A stretch of DNA of 64,000 nt, from the IMG/VR virus record IMGVR_UViG_2690315748_000001, positions 60,652-124,651 of that record. One strand, given 5' to 3'. Made by a program: the position numbers and the translations under genes. This stretch comes from a virus (lineage: Duplodnaviria > Heunggongvirae > Uroviricota > Caudoviricetes). The notes below the pieces were generated by a model that ran no database searches, had not been told where the DNA came from, and was given only the letters and a program-made list of their open reading frames with translations. Positions 2,964 to 60,762 of this stretch are shown here, one piece after another (within the stretch, counting starts at the first letter, position 1; every line of letters begins with the position of its first letter).

Positions 2964-3464
2964 ATGAGTAAATTCGTAGAAGGTCAAAAAGTAATGGTTC
3001 GTGAAGATTTAGAGAGTGGAAGAAATTATAATGACCTATACTTCGCAGAGAGTATGGAAAAATACAGAGGGAAAGAATTTGAAGTATTAACGGTTAATTG
3101 CGATGATTATATTCTAAGTGGAGACGATGAAGTGGTAGATTGGTACTTTAACGATGAAATGCTAGTCGAAGCAATTCCTGCACCTCCTGCGCTTCCTACT
3201 AAGGTTCTGGAGCTTGGGCAAATCGCTAAACTGGAGATTTATGTTGAACGAGTAATTGTGAATGATCCTGCTACAATTATGTTCTATCGTGTGGCTAACT
3301 TTGATGAAAAAACCAGTGAGTTTATTTCTTGGAGTGACACTAAGAAGGTTGTTGCGAAGGTGAACAAAGATATCGGAGACACGTTTGAAGTTGGAGCTGG
3401 TGTTAATGTTGCATTGCTGAAAGCATACCGCAAGGAGATTGACAAACAGCTACGCAAATTTTAA
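2964..3464 (+). CDS. hypothetical protein
   Basis: ORF; ATG 2964 preceded by ttaggagatg RBS; track start 2907 lies in A-rich intergenic DNA. Confidence 0.45.
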   Translation: MSKFVEGQKVMVREDLESGRNYNDLYFAESMEKYRGKEFEVLTVNCDDYILSGDDEVVDWYFNDEMLVEAIPAPPALPTKVLELGQIAKLEIYVERVIVNDPATIMFYRVANFDEKTSEFISWSDTKKVVAKVNKDIGDTFEVGAGVNVALLKAYRKEIDKQLRKF

Positions 3465-3498
3465 TTGACAGATGTAATTTTAACTAGGGGCGTGTCAA

Positions 3499-3675
3499 AT
3501 GATAAAGTACGAAATGGAAGACGGTAATAACAGTGCTAATATATTTCTCGTTGATGACGAGTTTAACATAAAGATTTTGGTAGCTGTAGTCTTTGACAGG
3601 GCGCATTCCAGAATTATTGTGCGCAAGTTGAATGAGTACATCGTATCTAATCCAGTGAGGACGACTGAGAACTAG
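3499..3675 (+). CDS. hypothetical small protein (58 aa), not in ORF track
   Basis: ATG 3499 preceded by GGGGCGTG RBS-like leader (same leader seen at 12869); ends just before repeated motif at 3681; more plausible than overlapping minus ORF 3484..3717. Confidence 0.3.
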   Translation: MIKYEMEDGNNSANIFLVDDEFNIKILVAVVFDRAHSRIIVRKLNEYIVSNPVRTTEN

Positions 3676-3680
3676 CCAAT

Positions 3681-3724
3681 GAGCCGAAGAAAGTATTGAC
3701 AGTGAGAGGGTTAACATCTATAAT
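3681..3724 (+). promoter_or_regulatory. Repeated motif copy (gagccgaagaaagtat) immediately followed by TTGACA(3696)-17 nt-TATAAT(3719) promoter upstream of Pnkp-like gene
   Basis: Read directly: gagccgaagaaagtaTTGACAgtgagagggttaacatcTATAAT. Confidence 0.6.
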
Positions 3725-3787
3725 GAGAATATAGATGTTAACCTTTTAATTATTTAAAAGAGTTTTAAACATACAAAACATTAGGAG

Positions 3788-6169
3788 ATGATTATTATTC
3801 GTAATTTGGTTCTTTTGCGTGGCGCAATGGGAGCAGGGAAATCATTTTTCATCAAAAAAAACAAGCTGGAACAGTTTGTACTGAGTGCAGATGCAATTCG
3901 CTTGCTTTTCCAAACGCCTGTAATGACTGAATCAGGCAAGTTTTCAATCAACTCAAGAAATGATGGGAAAGTGTGGAAGTTGTTGTTTGAACTTCTCGAA
4001 GAACGTATGAAACGTGGAGAGTTCACGATTATCGACGCTACACACGCTAAACAGGAAATGATTTCACAGTATAAGGATTTAGCACAGAAGTATCGTTATC
4101 GTGTTCATGTGGTTGATTTCTCTGACATTCCTCTGGAAACACTTTTGCTCCAGAACAGAATGAGAGACGAACACAAACATGTTCCTGAACATGTTATCAT
4201 GAATGTTCATGAACGTATGCAAACAGAGCATGTTCCAAAATGGGTTAATGTAATCAAGCCCGAAGAGTTTCATGATACAGTTCAGTTTGAACAAACGATT
4301 TACGAAAACTATGATTACATTCATCATTTTGGAGACATTCATGGAAGTTATGAAGCACTTATGGAGTACTTTGCGAAGACTGGACACGCTTTCTGCCAAG
4401 ATACAGGGTATCCGATTCTAAAGGAAAATGAACTGTATATCTTTGTAGGTGATATCACTGACAGAGGCACACAGAACGCAGAAGTATTAAATTTCTTTCT
4501 AAGTATCTACGCTCTTAAAAATGTTGTAATTCTCGAAGGAAATCATGAAATTCATTTATGGAACTGGGCGAATGACGAAGATGTTCGTAGCAAAGAGTTC
4601 ATCGACTTTACTCAACCACAACTTGAAAAGCCATTCAAGTATTTGATACCAGTTGATGTTGAATTTATTGATGAACTAGAAGAAAAATTGGATGAAGATA
4701 AATTGAAGGAATACAAGAAAGAAGTACGCCAATTCTATCGCAGACTTCGCCAAGTTGTTTGTTATAAGGCTCATGGTAAGGAAGTTGTTGTTACGCATGG
4801 TGGGCTTTCCAAAATGCCCGATAATCTTATGTATCTTGCCACAGAACAACTCATCAAAGGTGTAGGTGACTACGAGGTAGATATCGACAATGCTTGGGAC
4901 AACAATCTTCCATACATTTATGGTGAGTGCATTTACGCAACAGGTGGAGATGGGCTAAAAATTCCTTACGCTTTAGAAGTGTCAAAGAAAGTAGAGTTGT
5001 ATCAAATTCATGGTCATCGCAACATTTTCCGACTGCCTGTACAAGCAGGAAAGTACAGTTTTAACCTTGAAGGACAGGTTGAGTTCGGTGGTCATCTACG
5101 TGTGGTTGCATTAGATGCAGAGGGATTTCATGCGACAGAAGTAAAGAATAACAACTTCAAGATTCGCAAGGGTGTTGTTCCTAAACATATTGACGAGACA
5201 GATACGAGCATTGATCAGCTTATCGCATACATGTCTAATCATGAAATGATTGAAGAGAAGGACTTGGGTGGAAATATCTACTCATACAACTTTACTCGGA
5301 AGGCATTTAAGGATAAAGTTTGGGATGATATCAACGTGAAGGCAAGAGGTTTGTTTATTAACAAGAACACCAAAGAGATCGTTTCTCGATCATACAACAA
5401 GTTCTTCAATGTAAACGAACGCTCTTTCACGAAGATCAATGCGCTTGCCGACAATATGGTATTCCCTGTGCAAGTCTACGACAAACCGAACGGATACCTT
5501 GGAATTGTGGGATATGATTCTGAAAGCGATGAGCTAGTGTTTAGTTCGAAGTCGTCAACTGGTGGAGAATTTGCAGGATGGTTCAAAGAATTGTTTATCG
5601 GTCAGTTTGGAAGTGTTCTGGAAGCGATCAAACAAGAGTTAAAGGACGAAAATATCGCTCTGGTCTTTGAGGTAATCAAAGTGAAAGAAGACCCACACAT
5701 CATTGAATATGCAGAAGACAAATTGGTGCTACTTGATCTGGTGAAACGTACTGTGAAATATGAAAAACTTCCATATGATGATGTAGTTCAATTCGCAAGA
5801 TTCTATGGTTTAGAGCATAAAAATCTCATGCACACATTTGACAATTGGACTGACTTTTATATCTGGTATCGTGATGTGACAAATGACTTTAGTATTGATT
5901 ACAATGAAGGATTTGTTATTGAGGACTCTGCTGGATTCATGACAAAGATCAAGCTTCCTTTCTATAGTTTCTGGAAGCAATTTAGAAACATTAAGGATTT
6001 GTTTGCTAAACGTCACGAGCATACAGTAAAAGGTGGAAGTCTGTACACACCATTGCACAATAGAGTGTTCAAGTGGATGAAGGGTCAAGACCGTCAATGG
6101 TTGAAGAGAACTGATATCATTACTATTCGCAAGGCATACTTACAGGAGCAGTCCAAAGAACTGTTATAG
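3788..6169 (+). CDS. pnkp: Three-domain polynucleotide kinase / 2',3'-phosphoesterase / RNA-ligase-like nucleotidyltransferase (bacterial Pnkp-type RNA repair enzyme)
   Basis: N-term P-loop LRGAMGAGKSF (PNK-type kinase); central calcineurin-like metallophosphoesterase motifs GDIHG, GDITDRG, GNHE; C-term ligase-type motifs KARG (motif I, KxxG variant), EGFVIED (IV), MTKIKLP (V, KxK). Confidence 0.7.
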   Translation: MIIIRNLVLLRGAMGAGKSFFIKKNKLEQFVLSADAIRLLFQTPVMTESGKFSINSRNDGKVWKLLFELLEERMKRGEFTIIDATHAKQEMISQYKDLAQKYRYRVHVVDFSDIPLETLLLQNRMRDEHKHVPEHVIMNVHERMQTEHVPKWVNVIKPEEFHDTVQFEQTIYENYDYIHHFGDIHGSYEALMEYFAKTGHAFCQDTGYPILKENELYIFVGDITDRGTQNAEVLNFFLSIYALKNVVILEGNHEIHLWNWANDEDVRSKEFIDFTQPQLEKPFKYLIPVDVEFIDELEEKLDEDKLKEYKKEVRQFYRRLRQVVCYKAHGKEVVVTHGGLSKMPDNLMYLATEQLIKGVGDYEVDIDNAWDNNLPYIYGECIYATGGDGLKIPYALEVSKKVELYQIHGHRNIFRLPVQAGKYSFNLEGQVEFGGHLRVVALDAEGFHATEVKNNNFKIRKGVVPKHIDETDTSIDQLIAYMSNHEMIEEKDLGGNIYSYNFTRKAFKDKVWDDINVKARGLFINKNTKEIVSRSYNKFFNVNERSFTKINALADNMVFPVQVYDKPNGYLGIVGYDSESDELVFSSKSSTGGEFAGWFKELFIGQFGSVLEAIKQELKDENIALVFEVIKVKEDPHIIEYAEDKLVLLDLVKRTVKYEKLPYDDVVQFARFYGLEHKNLMHTFDNWTDFYIWYRDVTNDFSIDYNEGFVIEDSAGFMTKIKLPFYSFWKQFRNIKDLFAKRHEHTVKGGSLYTPLHNRVFKWMKGQDRQWLKRTDIITIRKAYLQEQSKELL

Positions 6170-9130: not shown

Positions 9131-10219
9131 ATGAACGTAAATGACTTGCCAATAATCAAGGAGAGAATTTATGAGGAAGGTCTGGTAGAGCAAATACTTG
9201 AAGCATTAGAGTGTGAGTATGTTAGACCTATCGGGAATGCAAGATATGAAGCTATGTTGCCTTTACGATTCATGAAAGGGAATAAGAGGGCAGTTCAAGT
9301 GAAAAACACGCCTTCCTTGCCCTCTCACATTTACACAACAGGTGTGAATGGAGATATATTCCTTCTTGTTGGATACATCTTGTATGGAGTGGAAACACAA
9401 GAAGAACTTCAAGATATATTATTTCAATGTAAAGCTTTTGTTTGCAATCTGTTTGGATGGCATGAGTACATCACTTATGAACAAGGCGATGACTTCGAAG
9501 AGATTGTTGAGAAAAGGGATTATCTCGCGTTTTTAAGACCTACTCAGAAAGACAGAAAAAAACGGAATAGGCTTAAAGTTATGAGGGATAAGGAGAACCA
9601 AGTGTTGGACAAAGATACTGTATTCAGTTGGTATCGTCAGATTCCGCAAGGAGCCTTTATTGAGGATGGAATCAGTGTTCGTACACAGAAGGTTTTCGAA
9701 GTAATGTTTGATGAAACAACCATGAGAGTTGTGTTTCCTATCTACAACTCAAATGGTGAATTAGTCTCGATCAAAGGCAGATACATCGGAGATGATGAGT
9801 GGGTTCTTGACGAAATCAAGTATCTATATCTGTATAGCTTCGATAAGAGTATCGAACTATTCAATTATCATAGAGCATTACCATATATCAAAAAATCAGG
9901 TGAAGTAATTGTCTTTGAATCCGAAAAGTCCTGCATGAAAGCATATCAATATGGTTTCAAGAATTGCGTTGCGATTTGCGGCTCTGAATTGAGTCCTGTA
10001 CAGGCACACATGCTCATTATGCTAGGTGTTAATATAACTTTTGCTTTCGACAATGATATGGACGATGAGCATGTAAGAAAGCAAGCGAAGCAGATACGTA
10101 CACGAAAATGCTTCTGGATTAAAGACACCCTCGGACTTCTCGACGAGAAGGACGCGCCTGTCGATAAGGGGAAGATAGCGTGGATAAAATTAATGAACGA
10201 GTGTCGAAGCGTAATTTAG
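9131..10219 (+). CDS. DNA primase (TOPRIM domain)
   Basis: TOPRIM motifs VIVFESEKS ... FAFDNDMDDEH; adjacent to helicase. Confidence 0.6.
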   Translation: MNVNDLPIIKERIYEEGLVEQILEALECEYVRPIGNARYEAMLPLRFMKGNKRAVQVKNTPSLPSHIYTTGVNGDIFLLVGYILYGVETQEELQDILFQCKAFVCNLFGWHEYITYEQGDDFEEIVEKRDYLAFLRPTQKDRKKRNRLKVMRDKENQVLDKDTVFSWYRQIPQGAFIEDGISVRTQKVFEVMFDETTMRVVFPIYNSNGELVSIKGRYIGDDEWVLDEIKYLYLYSFDKSIELFNYHRALPYIKKSGEVIVFESEKSCMKAYQYGFKNCVAICGSELSPVQAHMLIMLGVNITFAFDNDMDDEHVRKQAKQIRTRKCFWIKDTLGLLDEKDAPVDKGKIAWIKLMNECRSVI

Positions 10220-11139: not shown

Positions 11140-11160
11140 GAGCCGAAGAAAGTACTATAA
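11140..11160 (+). repeat. Repeated motif copy gagccgaagaaagtactataat (with TATAAT but weak -35)
   Basis: Exact core; the track ORF start ATG 11138 lies inside this element. Confidence 0.7.
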
Positions 11161-11179
11161 TAATAGGGAGTTGTTGTAT

Positions 11180-12868
11180 TTGGCGAAATGGATAAAGCGC
11201 AACAACGTAAAGGTTAAGAATGATATGTTGCTGATTGAGAAGTTAGCAAAGGTCAGAGGGATTAAGAATCTTGAAGAGTGGATGAACCCTCCTTCTATTT
11301 CAGTGAACAGCCCATACAAGCTGATGAACATTGATTTGATTGTCCAGAGAATCATAAAGGCAATTCACACACAAGAATTGATTGTGATTGTAGCTGACAT
11401 TGATACAGATGGAGTTTGTTCTACAGGAACCATGTTTAACTACCTGAAAGAATTGACTGACAATATCAAGTACATTCACGCACAACGGAGTCATGGTCAT
11501 GGTGTAGAGACTGTAGTAGATCAAATCCAAGAGGATTGTCTGGTGATTATTGTTGACTCGTCATCTAACTCTGTAGAAGGTTGTAAGGTATTGAGCGATA
11601 AGGGCATAGATGTACTCATTATCGACCATCACCAGATAGACGAAGAGAATCCATATGCAACGATTGTGAACTGTCAGCAGGGGGATTATCCAAACAAACA
11701 TCTTTCTGGTAGTGCAATGTGTTATAAGGTGTGTCAGGTTCTTGATGAATACTTAGACATTGATCTTGCTGACGATTTTCTTGATCTTGCGGCAATTGGA
11801 ATCGTAGCAGACATGATGGATATCAGAAACATGGAAAACCGATATCTTATCTACAATGGGATGAATAACATACTCAATCTTGGCATCAGGGAAATTTTGA
11901 AGCAAAGCAAGATTGACTATCAAGATGGCATCACCTCTACCAATATAAGCTTTAAGATTGCACCAATTATAGGCGCTTGCTCTCGTTTTGATAAAATTGA
12001 GTTGGCTCTTGAGCTTGTCACCTGTGAGGATGAAGCAAGAGTGAAAGAATTGGTCAAAGAGATGATTGAGATGAATGAAAAGCGTAAAGTCAATCAGAAG
12101 TTTTATGTTGAAGGTGCTGTCGAAAGTATTGACGATTCTCACAACATTATCGTCTACGTGGATAATGAAATTGATTCTGGCTTTAGAGGATTGATAGCAA
12201 CAGACTTTGTGGAACGATTCAATAAACCAGTATTCGTTCTAGCTGAATTTAAGGATGACGAGGGAAATATTATCGAGTATAAGGGTAGCGCGCGCGCAGT
12301 AGGCGTACTTCCTCTTAAAGAATTATGTGAAAGTACTGGTCTTTTTAATCTGACAAAAGGTCACGAAGGAGCCTTTGGTATTGGTTTTATTGCCGAAAAT
12401 CTCCCTAAGATAATTTCTTTCTTTGATGACACTTTAGATAGTACAGACCTTCAAAAAGTAGTTCAATACGACTTGGAATTGCATTCCAGTGACATTGACG
12501 AGATGGATATTAAACAAGTTGAGAAGTTTTCTCGGATCGTTGGTCAAGGATTCCCTGAACCAAAATTCCTTATAAAAGGATTGGTTGCGGAGGAAGAAGA
12601 AACCAAGAAGCTTGGCAAGTATGTTCGTGCTATACAAGGAGCTAACAAGGATACAATTAAGATTCCTTGCGAAGATGGATTTGCTCTGATGAAGTTCAGA
12701 ACACAAGATACGTATGCGAAGGATGTTGAAGATCATTTCTATGCTAATTTCGCTACTGAAATTGATGCAATCGGAAGCCTCAACATTAATCGTTTCTATC
12801 ATGGCGGTTATAAGCGTTGGATTACAACCAAGCAAGTGTTTTTGGAGGATTACAATATCATTGAATAG
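11180..12868 (+). CDS. DHH-family phosphoesterase, RecJ-like single-strand nuclease
   Basis: DHH motifs VADIDTDG and IIDHHQ, DHHA1-like C-terminal region; start uncertain (track ATG 11138 sits inside repeat/promoter; AGGGAG RBS at 11165 favours TTG 11171-11180). Confidence 0.6.
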   Translation: MAKWIKRNNVKVKNDMLLIEKLAKVRGIKNLEEWMNPPSISVNSPYKLMNIDLIVQRIIKAIHTQELIVIVADIDTDGVCSTGTMFNYLKELTDNIKYIHAQRSHGHGVETVVDQIQEDCLVIIVDSSSNSVEGCKVLSDKGIDVLIIDHHQIDEENPYATIVNCQQGDYPNKHLSGSAMCYKVCQVLDEYLDIDLADDFLDLAAIGIVADMMDIRNMENRYLIYNGMNNILNLGIREILKQSKIDYQDGITSTNISFKIAPIIGACSRFDKIELALELVTCEDEARVKELVKEMIEMNEKRKVNQKFYVEGAVESIDDSHNIIVYVDNEIDSGFRGLIATDFVERFNKPVFVLAEFKDDEGNIIEYKGSARAVGVLPLKELCESTGLFNLTKGHEGAFGIGFIAENLPKIISFFDDTLDSTDLQKVVQYDLELHSSDIDEMDIKQVEKFSRIVGQGFPEPKFLIKGLVAEEEETKKLGKYVRAIQGANKDTIKIPCEDGFALMKFRTQDTYAKDVEDHFYANFATEIDAIGSLNINRFYHGGYKRWITTKQVFLEDYNIIE

Positions 12869-51205: not shown

Positions 51206-51418
51206 ATGAGCAATAAGATACTTTCATGTAATTTAAAGAATATTTTACGAGAAAAGGGTTTAGATCAGAAAGATCTATCTCAAATGACTGGAGTCAGAGA
51301 AGCTACAATTTCTGAAATGGTCAGAAATAAAAACAAGATGTTTTCTCGACAAGTCCTTGAAAAAATAATGAATGCCTTGGACATAGACGATATTGGAAAA
51401 CTGCTAGAGATTAAATGA
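51206..51418 (+). CDS. XRE/Cro-C1-family HTH transcriptional regulator
   Basis: LKNILREKGLDQKDLSQMTGVREATISEMVRNKN canonical HTH_3. Confidence 0.65.
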   Translation: MSNKILSCNLKNILREKGLDQKDLSQMTGVREATISEMVRNKNKMFSRQVLEKIMNALDIDDIGKLLEIK

Positions 51419-51454: not shown

Positions 51455-51645
51455 GAGCAGGGATGCGCAAACATCCCCACTCTTTTACAACAGCCGCCTT
51501 GAAGAGCGGTCAGCAGTAGGCTTGGTTCAGAAATAGACCGTTACCTTTGGATGAGGCGGTCAGCCGTGTTCTGGTTCAACGAAATAGACCGTTTACCTTT
51601 GCACAGGGCGGTCTATTTCTTTTTGTTTTTTTGTAAAAACTTGTC
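51455..51645 (+). ncRNA. Candidate structured RNA / repeat-containing leader ending in terminator
   Basis: Promoter TTGAAA-18-TATACT at 51419; two ~49-nt tandem units (GCGGTCAGC..CTGGTTCA..AAATAGACCGTT.ACCTTTG); terminal hairpin gaaatagaccg/cggtctatttc + TTTTTGTTTTTTT. Confidence 0.35.
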
Positions 51646-51668: not shown

Positions 51669-51697
51669 TTGACCGCTGCCTAAATATGTTATAGTAT
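51669..51697 (+). promoter_or_regulatory. Promoter TTGACC-17-TAGTAT upstream of 51729 gene
   Basis: Read directly. Confidence 0.5.
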
Positions 51698-51728
51698 GGT
51701 TAAAAATGTAATCAGGAGGTAAAGCTAC

Positions 51729-52610
51729 ATGTTCAAATCAGCAATTTTGGAATCAGTAAGCGACATAAACCTTTTGACAGACATATTAAAAGAAGAGTTT
51801 TCTAACGAAAACTGGGAATCTATGGTGCATATTGCGGACAAGCTTTATACGTCGATTAAAGGATTGTACGAAGAAAACCAACTTCGGCAAGCAAAAGAAC
51901 AGCCGAGAGTTGATACTGGAAGACTTAAAAGAAGTGTCGCTTTCTATTTCGGGTTTTCGATGGTAATGAAAGGTATTGCATTACAGAAGATGGGTGATTA
52001 CGAAGGAACCCGTGACTGCATTGAAAAATACTCTGAGTTGGGATGGATGTACGGGTTGGGCGAGGAAGGTCAAGCTGATGTGGCTCATTTCAAGATGCTT
52101 GCACGAGCAAATACATACGTCCTTGACTTACTAGAGGGAAAAATGGATGTGCTCCCTGAGTACGTTCAATTCATACACAATGCCGAGGAAGTAGAGTTGC
52201 TGCCGGGAATTATAACAATTCTGGAATCAGCTATAAAAAATAATCATAATGTTGATTGGGCATTAGAAGAATTTGAAATTCAGCTAAACGCTCTGGACGG
52301 AGAGTACGAAGAGGAAGCCAATATACGTTATTATATAGACCATCTATATCTTATGGCACTATATAACTTTAAAAATGGGAGATATTTCAATGCACTAAAC
52401 ATTACACTTAATGGTTTGCGAATGTCTGATAAACTTAAAGATGATACAGGGTATAAAAAAATCAATGCATTATTTGTTACATTTAGTACCCATGCAACTA
52501 AAGAGCAGCTAAATGAATATAATGCATTGAACAAAACTATCCTTGAAAGGGTGTTAAAAGATGAAAAAGGCATTAGGTTTGATGGTAGTAGCTTTGTTTC
52601 TGTTCGGTAG
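51729..52610 (+). CDS. TPR-like all-helical protein (Rap-like receptor candidate, no HTH)
   Basis: 293 aa, repeated helical hairpins rich in Y/L/A/N; 3' end overlapped by a signal-peptide pro-peptide gene. Confidence 0.45.
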   Translation: MFKSAILESVSDINLLTDILKEEFSNENWESMVHIADKLYTSIKGLYEENQLRQAKEQPRVDTGRLKRSVAFYFGFSMVMKGIALQKMGDYEGTRDCIEKYSELGWMYGLGEEGQADVAHFKMLARANTYVLDLLEGKMDVLPEYVQFIHNAEEVELLPGIITILESAIKNNHNVDWALEEFEIQLNALDGEYEEEANIRYYIDHLYLMALYNFKNGRYFNALNITLNGLRMSDKLKDDTGYKKINALFVTFSTHATKEQLNEYNALNKTILERVLKDEKGIRFDGSSFVSVR

Positions 52611-52698
52611 CGTGAGCGGTATCGGAGGGTTCGCCCCGAACAATCATGGAGCGAATAGCTTCCAACTCCAACCTTATAATCATGGAGCGAATAGCTAA
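52561..52698 (+). CDS. Secreted pre-pro-peptide (45 aa) with tandem NHGANS repeats (Phr-like candidate), not in ORF track
   Basis: Signal peptide MKKALGLMVVALFLFGSVSG; C-terminal PNNHGANSFQLQPYNHGANS; 19-nt exact DNA duplication aatcatggagcgaatagct; overlaps 3' end of TPR gene in another frame. Confidence 0.5.
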   Translation: MKKALGLMVVALFLFGSVSGIGGFAPNNHGANSFQLQPYNHGANS

Positions 52699-52863
52699 TT
52701 TCAATCATCTCTTGAAGCCCCTTCATAGTGGAAGGGGTTTTTATTTTGGTAAAATAGTTCCAAAGAATCATTTTCCAAAATTCTTATATTTTTATACAGA
52801 CATTTCCTTTTATTGTGGTATAATGGCTAAGTATTCCACATATTATAGAAAAGGAAGTGCTCG

Positions 52864-53610
52864 TTGAAAATGAAGAAAACAGCAATTATCCTTACTGGTG
52901 TCTTAGCTCTTATGGCAGTAGCTCCGATGGCTGCTTCTGCCCAAACAACAAGCATTGAACCCACTACTGAACAGACTACCTCTAAAACACAACAACAGCA
53001 AGTCGAAATTAACTCTCCGTCAGATTACATTAAATGGCTTAAAGGTCAAGATGGTGCCGAGGAAACTTTAGAACAATTTTCCAAGTTGTCTGAATCTGAT
53101 CAAGATAAGTTCATTAAGTATTTGAACGATGTGGATGTACAAAAGCAAGTTGTAAAAGCGTTCGGTAGCGAGAAGGACGTTTCACTTTTTGGTGGAGATA
53201 TTGTAGTAAGCCATAAAGAGGACGCTCCGTCCAAAGATACTTCATCTAAAGTCACTCCGCAGGCAATGAATTATACGGTTTCTGATAGTTCCAAAGGAAC
53301 GTTTTTAGGTATAACCGTAAGTGAACTTCGGTCTACTGTTACCTACAGAGTAAGCGGTACTCCAGGCAACCAACAGATTGAGGTGCTTAGTGGAGGTGGT
53401 ATGGTCGTACGCAATTACAACCCTATTATCGGCATTACAGTAAACCAAGAAAGACCTTACACATCAGCAGATCGCCAGTATGCTTACCAAGTCAACTACT
53501 TTGCACATGACTTTAAAGGTACATGGGGATTGACTTACGGAACAGTTAAACACACTTTGTCAGGTGATACACAAGGAAGAGAGGTAAGACTTATCTCTGA
53601 AACGCTCTAA
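52864..53610 (+). CDS. secreted protein (248 aa)
   Basis: Signal peptide MKMKKTAIILTGVLALMAVAPMAASAQ; extended -10 TGGTATAAT promoter at about 52819. Confidence 0.55.
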   Translation: MKMKKTAIILTGVLALMAVAPMAASAQTTSIEPTTEQTTSKTQQQQVEINSPSDYIKWLKGQDGAEETLEQFSKLSESDQDKFIKYLNDVDVQKQVVKAFGSEKDVSLFGGDIVVSHKEDAPSKDTSSKVTPQAMNYTVSDSSKGTFLGITVSELRSTVTYRVSGTPGNQQIEVLSGGGMVVRNYNPIIGITVNQERPYTSADRQYAYQVNYFAHDFKGTWGLTYGTVKHTLSGDTQGREVRLISETL

Positions 53611-53791: not shown

Positions 53792-53829
53792 AAAAGGATT
53801 GCCTGAGCTTCATACTAGGCAATCCTTTT
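53792..53829 (+). terminator. Terminator hairpin aaaaggattgcct-loop-aggcaatcctttt
   Basis: Read directly; related hairpins at 56243 and 56571. Confidence 0.55.
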
Positions 53830-53857
53830 GCCATTATTCAGCAGGAGGATTTTAACT

Positions 53858-54313
53858 GTGAAAAGCACTGGAATGACTCGCCCATTAGACAACCTTGGAA
53901 GAATAGTAATTCCAAAAGAAATGAGAGAAACGATGGGGATTGACATCGGTGATCCATTAGAAATATTTGTAGACAAAGATTCTGGAATGCTGGCTTTTAG
54001 ACAATATATTGGAGTCGCCTGTAAAACTTGTGGTTCGATTGATAGATTATTATATTTTAAAGATAGTTTTATTTGCTCTGATTGTGCATACGATTTGAAG
54101 GAAGGTAAAATTTCTCCAAAAATATCAAATGACAAAATATCTAAAGTTGAAAAACCGAAGAGACGCATTTATCAGAAGCCTGAAATAATGCTTAAAAAAC
54201 TCAACGATTTAATGCTGGAACACCCATCGTATACGCAAAAGCAATACGCAGAAATATTGGGTGTATCTCAATGTCGTGTAAGTCAACTAAAAGGTAAATT
54301 AAGAGAGCAATAA
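53858..54313 (+). CDS. AbrB/MazE/SpoVT-type swapped-hairpin DNA-binding domain fused to a zinc ribbon and C-terminal HTH
   Basis: GTG start after AGGAGG; KSTGMTRPLDNLGRIVIPKEMRETMGIDIGDPLEI (AbrB-N signature); CKTCGS...CSDC; YTQKQYAEILGVSQCRVSQLKGK HTH. Confidence 0.55.
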   Translation: MKSTGMTRPLDNLGRIVIPKEMRETMGIDIGDPLEIFVDKDSGMLAFRQYIGVACKTCGSIDRLLYFKDSFICSDCAYDLKEGKISPKISNDKISKVEKPKRRIYQKPEIMLKKLNDLMLEHPSYTQKQYAEILGVSQCRVSQLKGKLREQ

Positions 54314-54598
54314 TAATAAAAGACTAACTATCCTTGTAGTTAGTCTTTTATTATTATTTTATAAATTCTTTTTTAGAATATCTTCAAACGAATTGTAGCT
54401 TTTTCTTCCGATACTTTTAATCATAAAATCCTCGAAAAACTATCCTAAAGGTATCTAAAATACATATATGAAATGTATATGATTTTATTCCAAAAGATGG
54501 TACAATCAAGAAGGGTATTCTACTACTTGTTTCAGAACTACATAATAATTTTAACTATGCATCGTATTGTTAGTCTACGTTGAAAGGGTGGTTTATTG

Positions 54599-56014
54599 AT
54601 GAAAATTGCACCCACGATTCGAGCAGAATTAGACAGATTTCTACAACAAGAAAGCTTAACATTATCGCAATTTGGACAAATCGCAGGGATGAATAGGGGA
54701 GCAGTAAGCGCTATTGTAACAGGGAATAAGCCTTTGTCTGTTAACCAGCTTGACTTAATTACTAAGGCTATGGGTTTGCCAGAGGGTCACTTTTACGACT
54801 TGTTCGCGGAAAATTACATCATAGATCACCCTCCAAATATGAAACGAATTGAGCCATTTTTGTTTCGCTGTGCAGAGTTGGACAAGTTAGATGCGATCCG
54901 TCGAGTGGTGGGAGCCATCATGGACAATCTAATGTATTCGCCCAAACTATTTGAAATTGCAGAAGGATTGTTGGCGCAGAAAAAGCTAGAAGCTGCATTG
55001 ATACTCTATGAAGGGGTAGCCGAAGCGGAGAGATATCAACATTCTGAACGTTTAGCCATCTGTCAATATCGGATTTTCAAAATCCAAATTGGAGATGATC
55101 AAAACCGTAATCTTAGTGCAGCTACGATTTTTGAAGTTTTTGTTGAGCGCCTTAATGAAATAGACCAACTTGACGCATTGAAGGATTTAGCAAACGTATA
55201 CAGGTCTTTACGTAAATGGGATAAGGTTGAGGAAATCGCTAAAAAAATGAGAGCTAAGGCGGAAATCCAATACACTTTGAAACATCAACAGAACAGTCGA
55301 GAACGTGATGAATCTACTAAAAGTCTAACTCGTCCCTTGTTTGTATACATCACCTATGCTGATCTATTGTGTGCTAGTGTCTGCGAAGCCAAAGGCGATT
55401 ATCAACAAGCTCTACAATATACTTACGCCTACGCCAATTTAGATTGGGTCAAAGAGACTGACGAAGATACCCAATACTGGATCGATTTGTACAAAACTTG
55501 GGCAGAAGGTAATACTCACGTTAATAAGCTCCTGTCTGGAGATACCAGTGTGCTAACGGAGTATGTTGAATACATTGCTGTTTCAGCCAATAAAGCAGAT
55601 AAAGAAATGGTCACCAAACTGTTAAATGTTTTGATGGCGGCTAATCGTTATAAGCTGGATGTAGATGACATACTTCGGCGCTTTGAAATTGATTCTTTTA
55701 CTCAGCAGCAACAGCCGTCAACGGATATGTATACGAAACAAGTTATACCAGAGCAATCCGCACGTTTGAGTTATGAATTAGCTTATTACCATCTACATCG
55801 AGGTTCATACGATGATGGTTTTAAATACTTGATGTATTCGTTGGTAAGTTACCATATACTAAACAACGAGAGCTATTATATAAACTGTATAGGGCTGTTT
55901 GAGCATTTCCGTACTCATGCGGTTCCTGAGACATTGAGCGAGTTCTCAAAAATAATTGAAAAGGTGTGGTTAGATAATGTTGAAAAAGGTTGCTTTTCTG
56001 ATCATCGCGACTAG
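54599..56014 (+). CDS. RRNPP-family (AimR/NprR/PlcR-like) HTH plus TPR peptide-sensing transcriptional regulator
   Basis: N-terminal XRE-type HTH LSQFGQIAGMNRGAVSAIVTGNKPLS; about 400-aa helical/TPR-like C-terminus; small secreted peptide gene overlaps its 3' end. Confidence 0.55.
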   Translation: MKIAPTIRAELDRFLQQESLTLSQFGQIAGMNRGAVSAIVTGNKPLSVNQLDLITKAMGLPEGHFYDLFAENYIIDHPPNMKRIEPFLFRCAELDKLDAIRRVVGAIMDNLMYSPKLFEIAEGLLAQKKLEAALILYEGVAEAERYQHSERLAICQYRIFKIQIGDDQNRNLSAATIFEVFVERLNEIDQLDALKDLANVYRSLRKWDKVEEIAKKMRAKAEIQYTLKHQQNSRERDESTKSLTRPLFVYITYADLLCASVCEAKGDYQQALQYTYAYANLDWVKETDEDTQYWIDLYKTWAEGNTHVNKLLSGDTSVLTEYVEYIAVSANKADKEMVTKLLNVLMAANRYKLDVDDILRRFEIDSFTQQQQPSTDMYTKQVIPEQSARLSYELAYYHLHRGSYDDGFKYLMYSLVSYHILNNESYYINCIGLFEHFRTHAVPETLSEFSKIIEKVWLDNVEKGCFSDHRD

Positions 56015-56093
56015 CTTTTTGTTATTTGTCACTGTACCTGTTCAGTTGCATAGTCAGGTTATTCATCTTAACGATCAAATTGGAGGTTCTTAA
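55977..56093 (+). CDS. Secreted signalling pre-pro-peptide candidate (38 aa; C-terminus LNDQIGGS), not in ORF track
   Basis: RBS aaaggtg; signal-peptide-like MLKKVAFLIIATSFLLFVTVPVQL; overlaps end of regulator gene in a different frame. Confidence 0.45.
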   Translation: MLKKVAFLIIATSFLLFVTVPVQLHSQVIHLNDQIGGS

Positions 56094-56313: not shown

Positions 56314-56517
56314 GTGAAAATGAGCGTACAGGACGTTCAATGGGTTGCTGGTCAACTAGAAAATATAGCTAACAGTATGACTGATTCCCTAAAGGCTAGA
56401 CAAGATTTAGGTGAGCTTGTAGATGACCATCACATTCGTATTTGTCTAAAGCAAGCTTTAGAGTTGTCTAAAGAAGCTATTGAAAAACATTATTACCAGT
56501 CGAAAGAAGTTGAATAA
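56314..56517 (+). CDS. hypothetical small protein
   Basis: AAGGAG RBS, GTG start; terminator at 56571. Confidence 0.4.
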   Translation: MKMSVQDVQWVAGQLENIANSMTDSLKARQDLGELVDDHHIRICLKQALELSKEAIEKHYYQSKEVE

Positions 56518-60612: not shown

Positions 60613-60762
60613 CGGGAATCACACCCCTTTACTAGAAAATTAGTTTATCACTCCCTCTCTCTATATAAAGTGATGAGGGGTTATTCTGTTTGATGTATTG
60701 ACAACGATTCTGTACAAACAAAAATAAGAGGAATGCCACATTGGACATTCCTCTTATTTGCC

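Follow-up and report, generated by a model that had tools for sequence, protein, structure and literature searches.

Which kind of peptide-signalling system does a large phage carry at 51729-52698 of the 64,000-nt stretch of DNA analyzed here (the window), and how might its receptor act without a DNA-binding domain? A preliminary description had read this locus as a Rap-Phr-like module, composed of a TPR-only receptor and an overlapping secreted pre-peptide, next to an AimR-like cassette. The 293-aa open reading frame (ORF) of the receptor gene (aloR17, 51729..52610, plus strand), the 45-aa signal-peptide ORF overlapping it (aloP17, 52561..52698, plus strand; MKKALGLMVVALFLFGSVSGIGGFAPNNHGANSFQLQPYNHGANS), and the exact 19-nt duplication within the latter were all present as described. 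The smaller ORF had been said to be missing from the program-made ORF list, which was incorrect, as the list shows it once the length cut-off is lowered.

The locus proved to be already catalogued. AloR17 is an exact match to WP_090739438.1 from the 154,442-bp contig of Paenibacillus sp. Mc5Re-14. Voichek et al. (2020, PMC7425212), who described peptide quorum sensing by Alo (AloR-AloP) pairs in Paenibacillaceae, list the P. polymyxa Mc5Re-14 gene Ga0124138_13185 as 293 aa long and assign it to clade Alo17; the peptide given for it is exactly that of the 45-aa ORF (Table S1), and the gene lies at 112380-113261 of scaffold Ga0124138_13 (Table S2). The same tables place the 471-aa Ga0124138_13189 at 115250-116665, in clade Alo20, with the peptide MLKKVAFLIIATSFLLFVTVPVQLHSQVIHLNDQIGGS. 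Both peptides and the 2870-nt gene spacing agree exactly between the window and these tables; the pair and the neighboring “AimR-like cassette” are therefore Alo17 and Alo20 of the catalogue. Contrary to the novelty that the preliminary description implied, the gene pair, its peptide, and its neighbor have thus been known since 2020 (PMC7425212). The AimR assignment of the neighbor fell as well, since the AimR model NF038310 was matched by neither the 293-aa nor the 472-aa protein; its only match, sub-threshold and confined to the HTH, was to an unrelated 70-aa Xre-type protein discussed below. The experiments in PMC7425212 concern Alo13 only, Alo receptors are treated there as transcription factors, and phage location, tandem peptide units, and short HTH-less receptors are not discussed.

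Alo membership is defined operationally by BLAST or profile homology, and AloR17 matches AloRs at E-values that reach 1e-19 for AloR20. Directly downstream lies an ORF with an N-terminal hydrophobic signal whose length, 45 aa, falls in the 32-50-aa range of Alo peptides, and all named relatives are Paenibacillus, one “Bacillota bacterium” MAG excepted, in keeping with the restriction of Alo to Paenibacillaceae. A TPR-fold receptor gene adjoining a putative secreted pro-peptide gene is also the arrangement expected of RRNPP(A) systems. The N-terminal HTH ascribed to Alo receptors was not found in AloR17 by Pfam, by NCBIfam, in any of 48 clade members, or in the predicted model. Because the authors of PMC7425212 themselves list the 293-aa gene as Alo17, the HTH is taken here as a descriptive statement rather than an inclusion criterion; its absence is not disqualifying, and aloR17-aloP17 is therefore filed as a member of the Alo family belonging to an HTH-less sub-lineage. 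The existence of this clade contradicts both the N-terminal HTH stated for Alo receptors without exception (PMC7425212) and the description of AloR as HTH-9TPR (PMC12700828).

Homology searches placed AloR17 within this family more precisely. No match was obtained in Pfam or NCBIfam and no meaningful one in PHROG, but the whole length of AloR17 aligned to residues 186-469 of the 472-aa AloR20 (BLASTP, 25% identity). When 1.8 billion representatives were searched with a profile built from 48 homologues, 332 proteins in two size classes were recovered: a short class of ~265-295 aa, matched end to end, and a long class of ~440-490 aa, matched from about residue 185 onward with E-values down to 1e-63. 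In a midpoint-rooted neighbor-joining tree of the shared domain, built from a match set biased towards short forms, the short AloRs formed one clade of ~265-305-aa proteins (113 short, 1 intermediate, and 0 long members). HTH models matched 0 of 48 short-clade proteins, TPR_2 matched 20 of the 48, and the model predicted for AloR17, compact and of high confidence, consists of TPR-like helices only. The earlier claim of a TPR-only receptor without an HTH thus held: AloR17 is a cytoplasmic TPR-only protein equivalent to the C-terminal ~280 residues of full-length, HTH-bearing AloRs, and judging from the alignments it lacks the HTH and the next ~120 N-terminal residues, i.e., roughly the first 185 of the long forms. 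The dN/dS of AloR17 against four relatives was 0.07-0.21. Given the monophyly of the short clade, its lack of HTH matches, and these ratios, AloR17 is considered a conserved, intact receptor within a short clade under purifying selection.

Of 86 matches, those with names were all Paenibacillus apart from the MAG mentioned above, and the rest were metagenome sequences. The genome scan relied on a profile built from 17 sequences, and the loci examined comprised 57 genome loci, 57 of 57 from Paenibacillus, together with one metagenome contig and one IMG/VR contig. Alo7, a chromosomal short form, is conserved throughout the 14 P. polymyxa strains that were checked. Among INPHARED phages, a megablast search with the aloR17-aloP17 locus found nothing, and the only tblastn match was a long-form AloR in Brevibacillus phage SecTim467, a 130-kb phage in which a spo0E-like gene precedes the gene for a 474-aa homologue of the long AloR form, itself overlapped by a 45-aa ORF (L060; KT151957.1, 67307-69130).

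These affiliations bear directly on the Rap-Phr homology that had been claimed, under which AloR17 would be a response-regulator aspartate phosphatase or binder controlled by a Phr peptide. The layout is that of Rap-Phr, with an HTH-less TPR protein and a downstream secreted pro-peptide ending in a C-terminal hexapeptide, and the top Foldseek match of AloR17 is the pLS20 Rap; the E-value of that match is only 0.02, however, and unrelated TPR proteins score similarly. Although RRNPP receptors are among the best structural matches, the likeness is that of a generic TPR superhelix. At the sequence level, AloR17 matched none of the Pfam models Rap, RapH_N, and TPR_12 and no Rap model of NCBIfam, a PDB sequence search with the family profile returned nothing, solved Raps included, and the sequence relatives of AloR17 are all Paenibacillus AloR proteins; at 293 aa, it is also shorter than Raps (~375 aa). 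A true Rap-Phr module, already contradicted by sequence homology because no Rap is matched and all relatives are AloRs, is therefore highly improbable.

The signals surrounding the two genes suggest an independent transcription unit. An AGGAGG Shine-Dalgarno sequence (51715..51720, plus strand), read off the sequence, precedes the aloR17 ATG by 8 nt, and an in-frame TAA directly upstream (51720-51722) leaves no possible upstream extension of the ORF. A sigma-70-like promoter candidate found by consensus scan (TTGACC-17-TAGTAT, 51669..51697, plus strand) is kept in a relative with 98% identity (L001, below), and an intrinsic terminator follows aloP17 (52714..52741, plus strand), its hairpin and T-run being kept in 5/5 aligned Alo17 loci. 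With a promoter before aloR17 and a terminator after aloP17, the pair looks like a self-contained two-gene operon. Just upstream of the promoter, at 51506-51632, lies a tandem direct repeat of two ~51-nt units (GCGGTCAGC...GAAATAGACCGTT(T)ACCTTTG) that closes with a strong terminator hairpin (51578-51622) and T-run and is also kept in L001 (about 9800-9905); a known RNA element was rejected here, with no Rfam match and a folding z-score of only -1.8, and the region is treated as a duplicated terminator.

Within the operon, aloP17 starts 50 nt before the aloR17 stop codon. Its Shine-Dalgarno-like sequence AAAGGGTG (52546..52553, plus strand), read off the sequence, lies at the usual spacing inside the aloR17 coding region, and an equivalent purine-rich site with equal spacing was seen in homologous loci. 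The encoded pro-peptide opens with a signal peptide (about residues 1-20, with an MKK start and a hydrophobic core), followed by two NHGANS units, the first at residues 28-33 (52642..52659, plus strand) and the second at the C-terminus, residues 40-45 (52678..52695, plus strand). Both are encoded by the 19-mer AATCATGGAGCGAATAGCT, which occurs exactly twice, at 52642-52660 and 52678-52696; 100 shuffles gave 0 matches. By analogy with AloP13, whose mature peptide SHGRGG is its C-terminal 6 aa and is active at 10 nM-5 uM (PMC7425212), the NHGANS hexapeptide is most likely the mature signal, present twice per precursor, and the HG core of SHGRGG is common to the AloP17 units. Mass spectrometry in PMC7425212 detected 9 Alo peptides, not including AloP7, the closest peptide in the strain studied; that strain lacks Alo17.

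An overlapping signal-peptide ORF at the 3′ end of the receptor gene recurs at 30 homologous loci, the window counted, and in nearly all of them it begins 43-55 nt before the receptor stop; this recurrence places the aloR17-aloP17 pairing beyond chance and bears out its earlier reading as a cognate receptor and pro-peptide. A C-terminal xHGxx(x) motif ends 29 of the 30 overlapping pro-peptides of the short clade, as YHGANH (Alo7), NHGMGH, SHGMGH, NHGMNH, NHGVDY, DHGAEH, LHGENH, and others. Among the loci examined, multiple peptide units are confined to the Alo17 clade, where relatives carry 1-3 copies. Thus, aloP17 is conserved in L001-L004, with two units in L001-L003: NHGANS twice in the window and in L001, NHGMNS twice in L002, NHGANS plus NHGANY in L003, and a single NHGMNH in L004. 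Among the other Alo17 entries of the catalogue, the peptide of strain WLY78 contains NNHGMNS twice and that of NRRL B-30509 contains NNHGANS three times (PMC7425212), and the proposal that the repeat unit is the probable mature signal is thereby strengthened. The two NHGMNS units of L002 differ at 3 synonymous sites and 0 amino acids, from which it follows that selection preserves both copies, the repeat not being merely a recent slip, and that the peptide unit is under purifying selection. In Phr and NprX, autoinducer units have been documented to duplicate within the gene and diverge (PMC5199041), and the NHGANS/NHGANY pair of L003 fits this behavior.

The absence of the HTH and of the first ~185 residues of the long form would also suit a decaying remnant or passive peptide sink, that is, an N-terminally truncated AloR without signalling output that would at most sequester peptide. 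Clade-wide conservation, purifying selection, and intact expression signals make such decay very unlikely: the truncated length is shared across 113 cluster representatives, the dN/dS values are low, aloR17 has its own candidate promoter, strong Shine-Dalgarno sequence, and terminator, the predicted fold is compact and confident, Alo7 is kept in 14/14 P. polymyxa strains, and both peptide units have stayed identical through synonymous change.

The carrier of the operon is a large phage of 143-154 kb of P. polymyxa Mc5Re-14. The window encodes a phage-type DNA polymerase III alpha, aerobic and anaerobic ribonucleotide reductases, a DnaB-type helicase, RecJ, an ATP-dependent ligase, an RNA ligase/kinase, and an endolysin, with nearly all genes on one strand, and a large phage follows from these replication genes and this layout. 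The 98%-identical copy of AloR17 comes from a metagenomic contig of 143 kb that shares this gene order (L001). In Mc5Re-14, the phage occupies its own 154-kb scaffold, Ga0124138_13, apart from a chromosome scaffold of >5 Mb; window position 1 corresponds to about position 60,652 of Ga0124138_13. Instead of being an integrated prophage, it could be a phage with a complete genome that is possibly episomal or in active replication. After the aloP17 terminator, a 248-aa secreted-protein gene (52864-53610) is replaced in L001 by an unrelated gene for a 210-aa secreted protein (11156-11788), although promoter region and signal peptide are almost the same in both; this looks like a swapped cargo (moron) cassette. 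Between Alo17 and Alo20 lies a gene (53828-54313) whose 161-aa product combines an N-terminal domain of the AbrB/SpoVT type with an HTH at the C-terminus; it has been proposed that an abrB or spo0E neighbor marks phage quorum-sensing systems that hijack sporulation (PMC10075063).

The second system, Alo20, confirms that the phage encodes two peptide-signalling pairs. The paralogue aloR20 (54596..56014, plus strand, start at 54596/54599; Ga0124138_13189) encodes a 472-aa long-form Alo receptor with HTH and TPRs, and aloP20 (55977..56093, plus strand) a 38-aa pro-peptide ending in DQIGGS that is identical to the Table S1 entry. The aloP20 C-terminus is DQIGGS in the window (54596-56093) and DQIGGA in L001 (13034-14537), a difference between near-identical phages that could reflect a change in signal specificity. 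Mobile elements with two RRNPP systems, and AloR systems borne by phages or prophages, have been reported previously (bioRxiv 10.1101/2021.07.15.452460; PMC10075063). Directly 3′ of aloP20, at 56314-56517, lies a 67-aa helical ORF. In related systems, aimX or spo0E-like targets occupy the position after the pro-peptide gene, and a downstream Spo0E-like gene is typical of several Alo systems; a Spo0E-like target after aloP20 was rejected, as the 67-aa ORF has no significant family match.

In the window as in L001, ~2 kb separate the receptor genes aloR17 and aloR20, and AloR17 is paralogous to the C-terminal two-thirds of AloR20, with the TPR and dimerisation region kept. AimR dimerises via its C-terminal end. 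Together with the position of AimR as the sister family of AloR in a structural phylogeny (PMC12700828), these features are consistent with AloR17 being a dominant-negative or modulatory partner of HTH-bearing AloRs such as AloR20, forming DNA-binding-defective heterodimers under NHGANS control. This arrangement is nonetheless unlikely: the two proteins are only 25% identical, Alo17 occurs in L002 and L003 without a long AloR within 4-6 kb, and the chromosomal short form Alo7 does not adjoin a long AloR.

DNA binding might instead be supplied in trans, by a 70-aa Xre/Cro-type HTH protein whose gene (51206-51418) adjoins aloR17 directly on its 5′ side and on the same strand, the two acting as a two-protein regulator. 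A parallel exists in the peptide-less, Alo18-like short AloRs, in which a divergently transcribed SinR-like Xre gene (~115 aa) always lies beside the TPR gene, conserved at 24 loci. The 70-aa Xre gene, however, is replaced in L001 by unrelated non-coding sequence, and none of the other peptide-bearing short-AloR loci has it; a terminator-like hairpin (51460-51477) and the strong hairpin plus T-run at 51578-51622 separate it from aloR17, and its product shows no similarity to the AloR HTH, all of which make this partnership quite unlikely. A separate idea, that the 70-aa or the ~115-aa Xre is the detached N-terminus of a split long AloR, was rejected, neither being similar to the AloR N-terminal region. 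The Xre-paired peptide-less loci include L028, L030-L032, L034, L035, L037, L039, L040, L042-L052, and L057 (about 3430-3840, minus strand). Their receptor and ~115-aa Xre may form a two-protein TPR/HTH regulatory module, and the pairing is a hint of cooperation between the short clade and small HTH proteins. Among the loci examined, this Xre lies beside no peptide-bearing short AloR, and no conserved partner gene was found beside peptide-bearing short AloRs. A host regulator was considered as a third possible partner of AloR17, with no candidate emerging from sequence.

The reading preferred here, and considered probable though far from certain, is that of a phage-borne Alo-family operon with a secreted NHGANS signal and with AloR17 as a Rap-like, peptide-gated, protein-binding regulator. 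Lacking an HTH, AloR17 cannot fill the role of a peptide-controlled transcription factor of the Alo13 type, and it is because it cannot bind DNA that a protein-binding mode is proposed. AloP17 would be secreted by way of its Sec-type signal peptide and cleaved to release two NHGANS hexapeptides per precursor, which would be re-imported by an oligopeptide permease and would bind the concave TPR groove of AloR17. The conserved residues N128, Q86, K87, R95, E156, Y201, Y212, K244, and Q260 may line this groove. The receptor would hold or release a protein partner, the most plausible candidates being small HTH regulators and other receptors of phage or host origin, in a manner altered once NHGANS fills the groove, and a phage or host decision would come to depend on the density of cells carrying the phage. 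A broader scenario is offered only tentatively as a whole: within the nine-TPR RRNPPA receptors, the DNA-binding domain would have been lost a second time, independently, on the branch that is sister to AimR, and the short AloRs (Alo7/17/18 type) would be the outcome, a Rap-like class of peptide-gated protein-protein regulators in Paenibacillaceae. A large phage would have captured one of these, with a multi-copy pheromone precursor, and would use it beside a conventional HTH-bearing Alo system to direct a decision of phage or host such as lysogeny, sporulation, or defence.

The discovery value of the locus is small, as the pair, peptide, and neighbor are already published, Bacillus provides precedents for phages with two RRNPP systems, and Phr and NprX do so for duplicated autoinducer units. 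New in this analysis are the HTH-less monophyletic lineage, the clade-wide conservation of xHGxx(x), and the location on a large phage; the residual interest, which is modest, lies in the undescribed HTH-less AloR lineage and its partner. Since a sizeable, conserved AloR clade has no HTH, the family’s model of peptide-controlled transcription factors does not apply to that clade. An HTH-less and a conventional AloR side by side on one phage form a compact system for asking what an HTH-less AloR binds and whether peptide signals serve Paenibacillus phages in lysis-lysogeny or in manipulating the host.

Two known systems invite comparison. The arbitrium system of Bacillus phages, AimR-AimP, resembles Alo17 in being phage-borne and of RRNPP type, with an overlapping or adjacent pro-peptide gene. 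AimR has an HTH, however, and AloR17, lacking one, cannot act like AimR on an aimX-type promoter. Rap-Phr of Bacillus (e.g., the phi3T and pLS20 Raps) is closer in organization, with an HTH-less TPR receptor, a secreted pro-peptide encoded downstream of it that has its last five or six residues as the signal, and frequent carriage on mobile elements with a second peptide system. This likeness is a functional analogy only, without detectable sequence homology; Raps of ~375 aa comprise an N-terminal three-helix bundle and 7 TPRs, compared with the 293 aa of AloR17, and the bundle through which Raps engage their targets is missing in AloR17, which counts against a Rap-like mode. The peptides differ as well, being of the xHGxxx type in the Alo17 clade and of the Phr type in Rap-Phr, and relative to the Raps the loss of the HTH in AloR17 is an independent event inside the AloR lineage.
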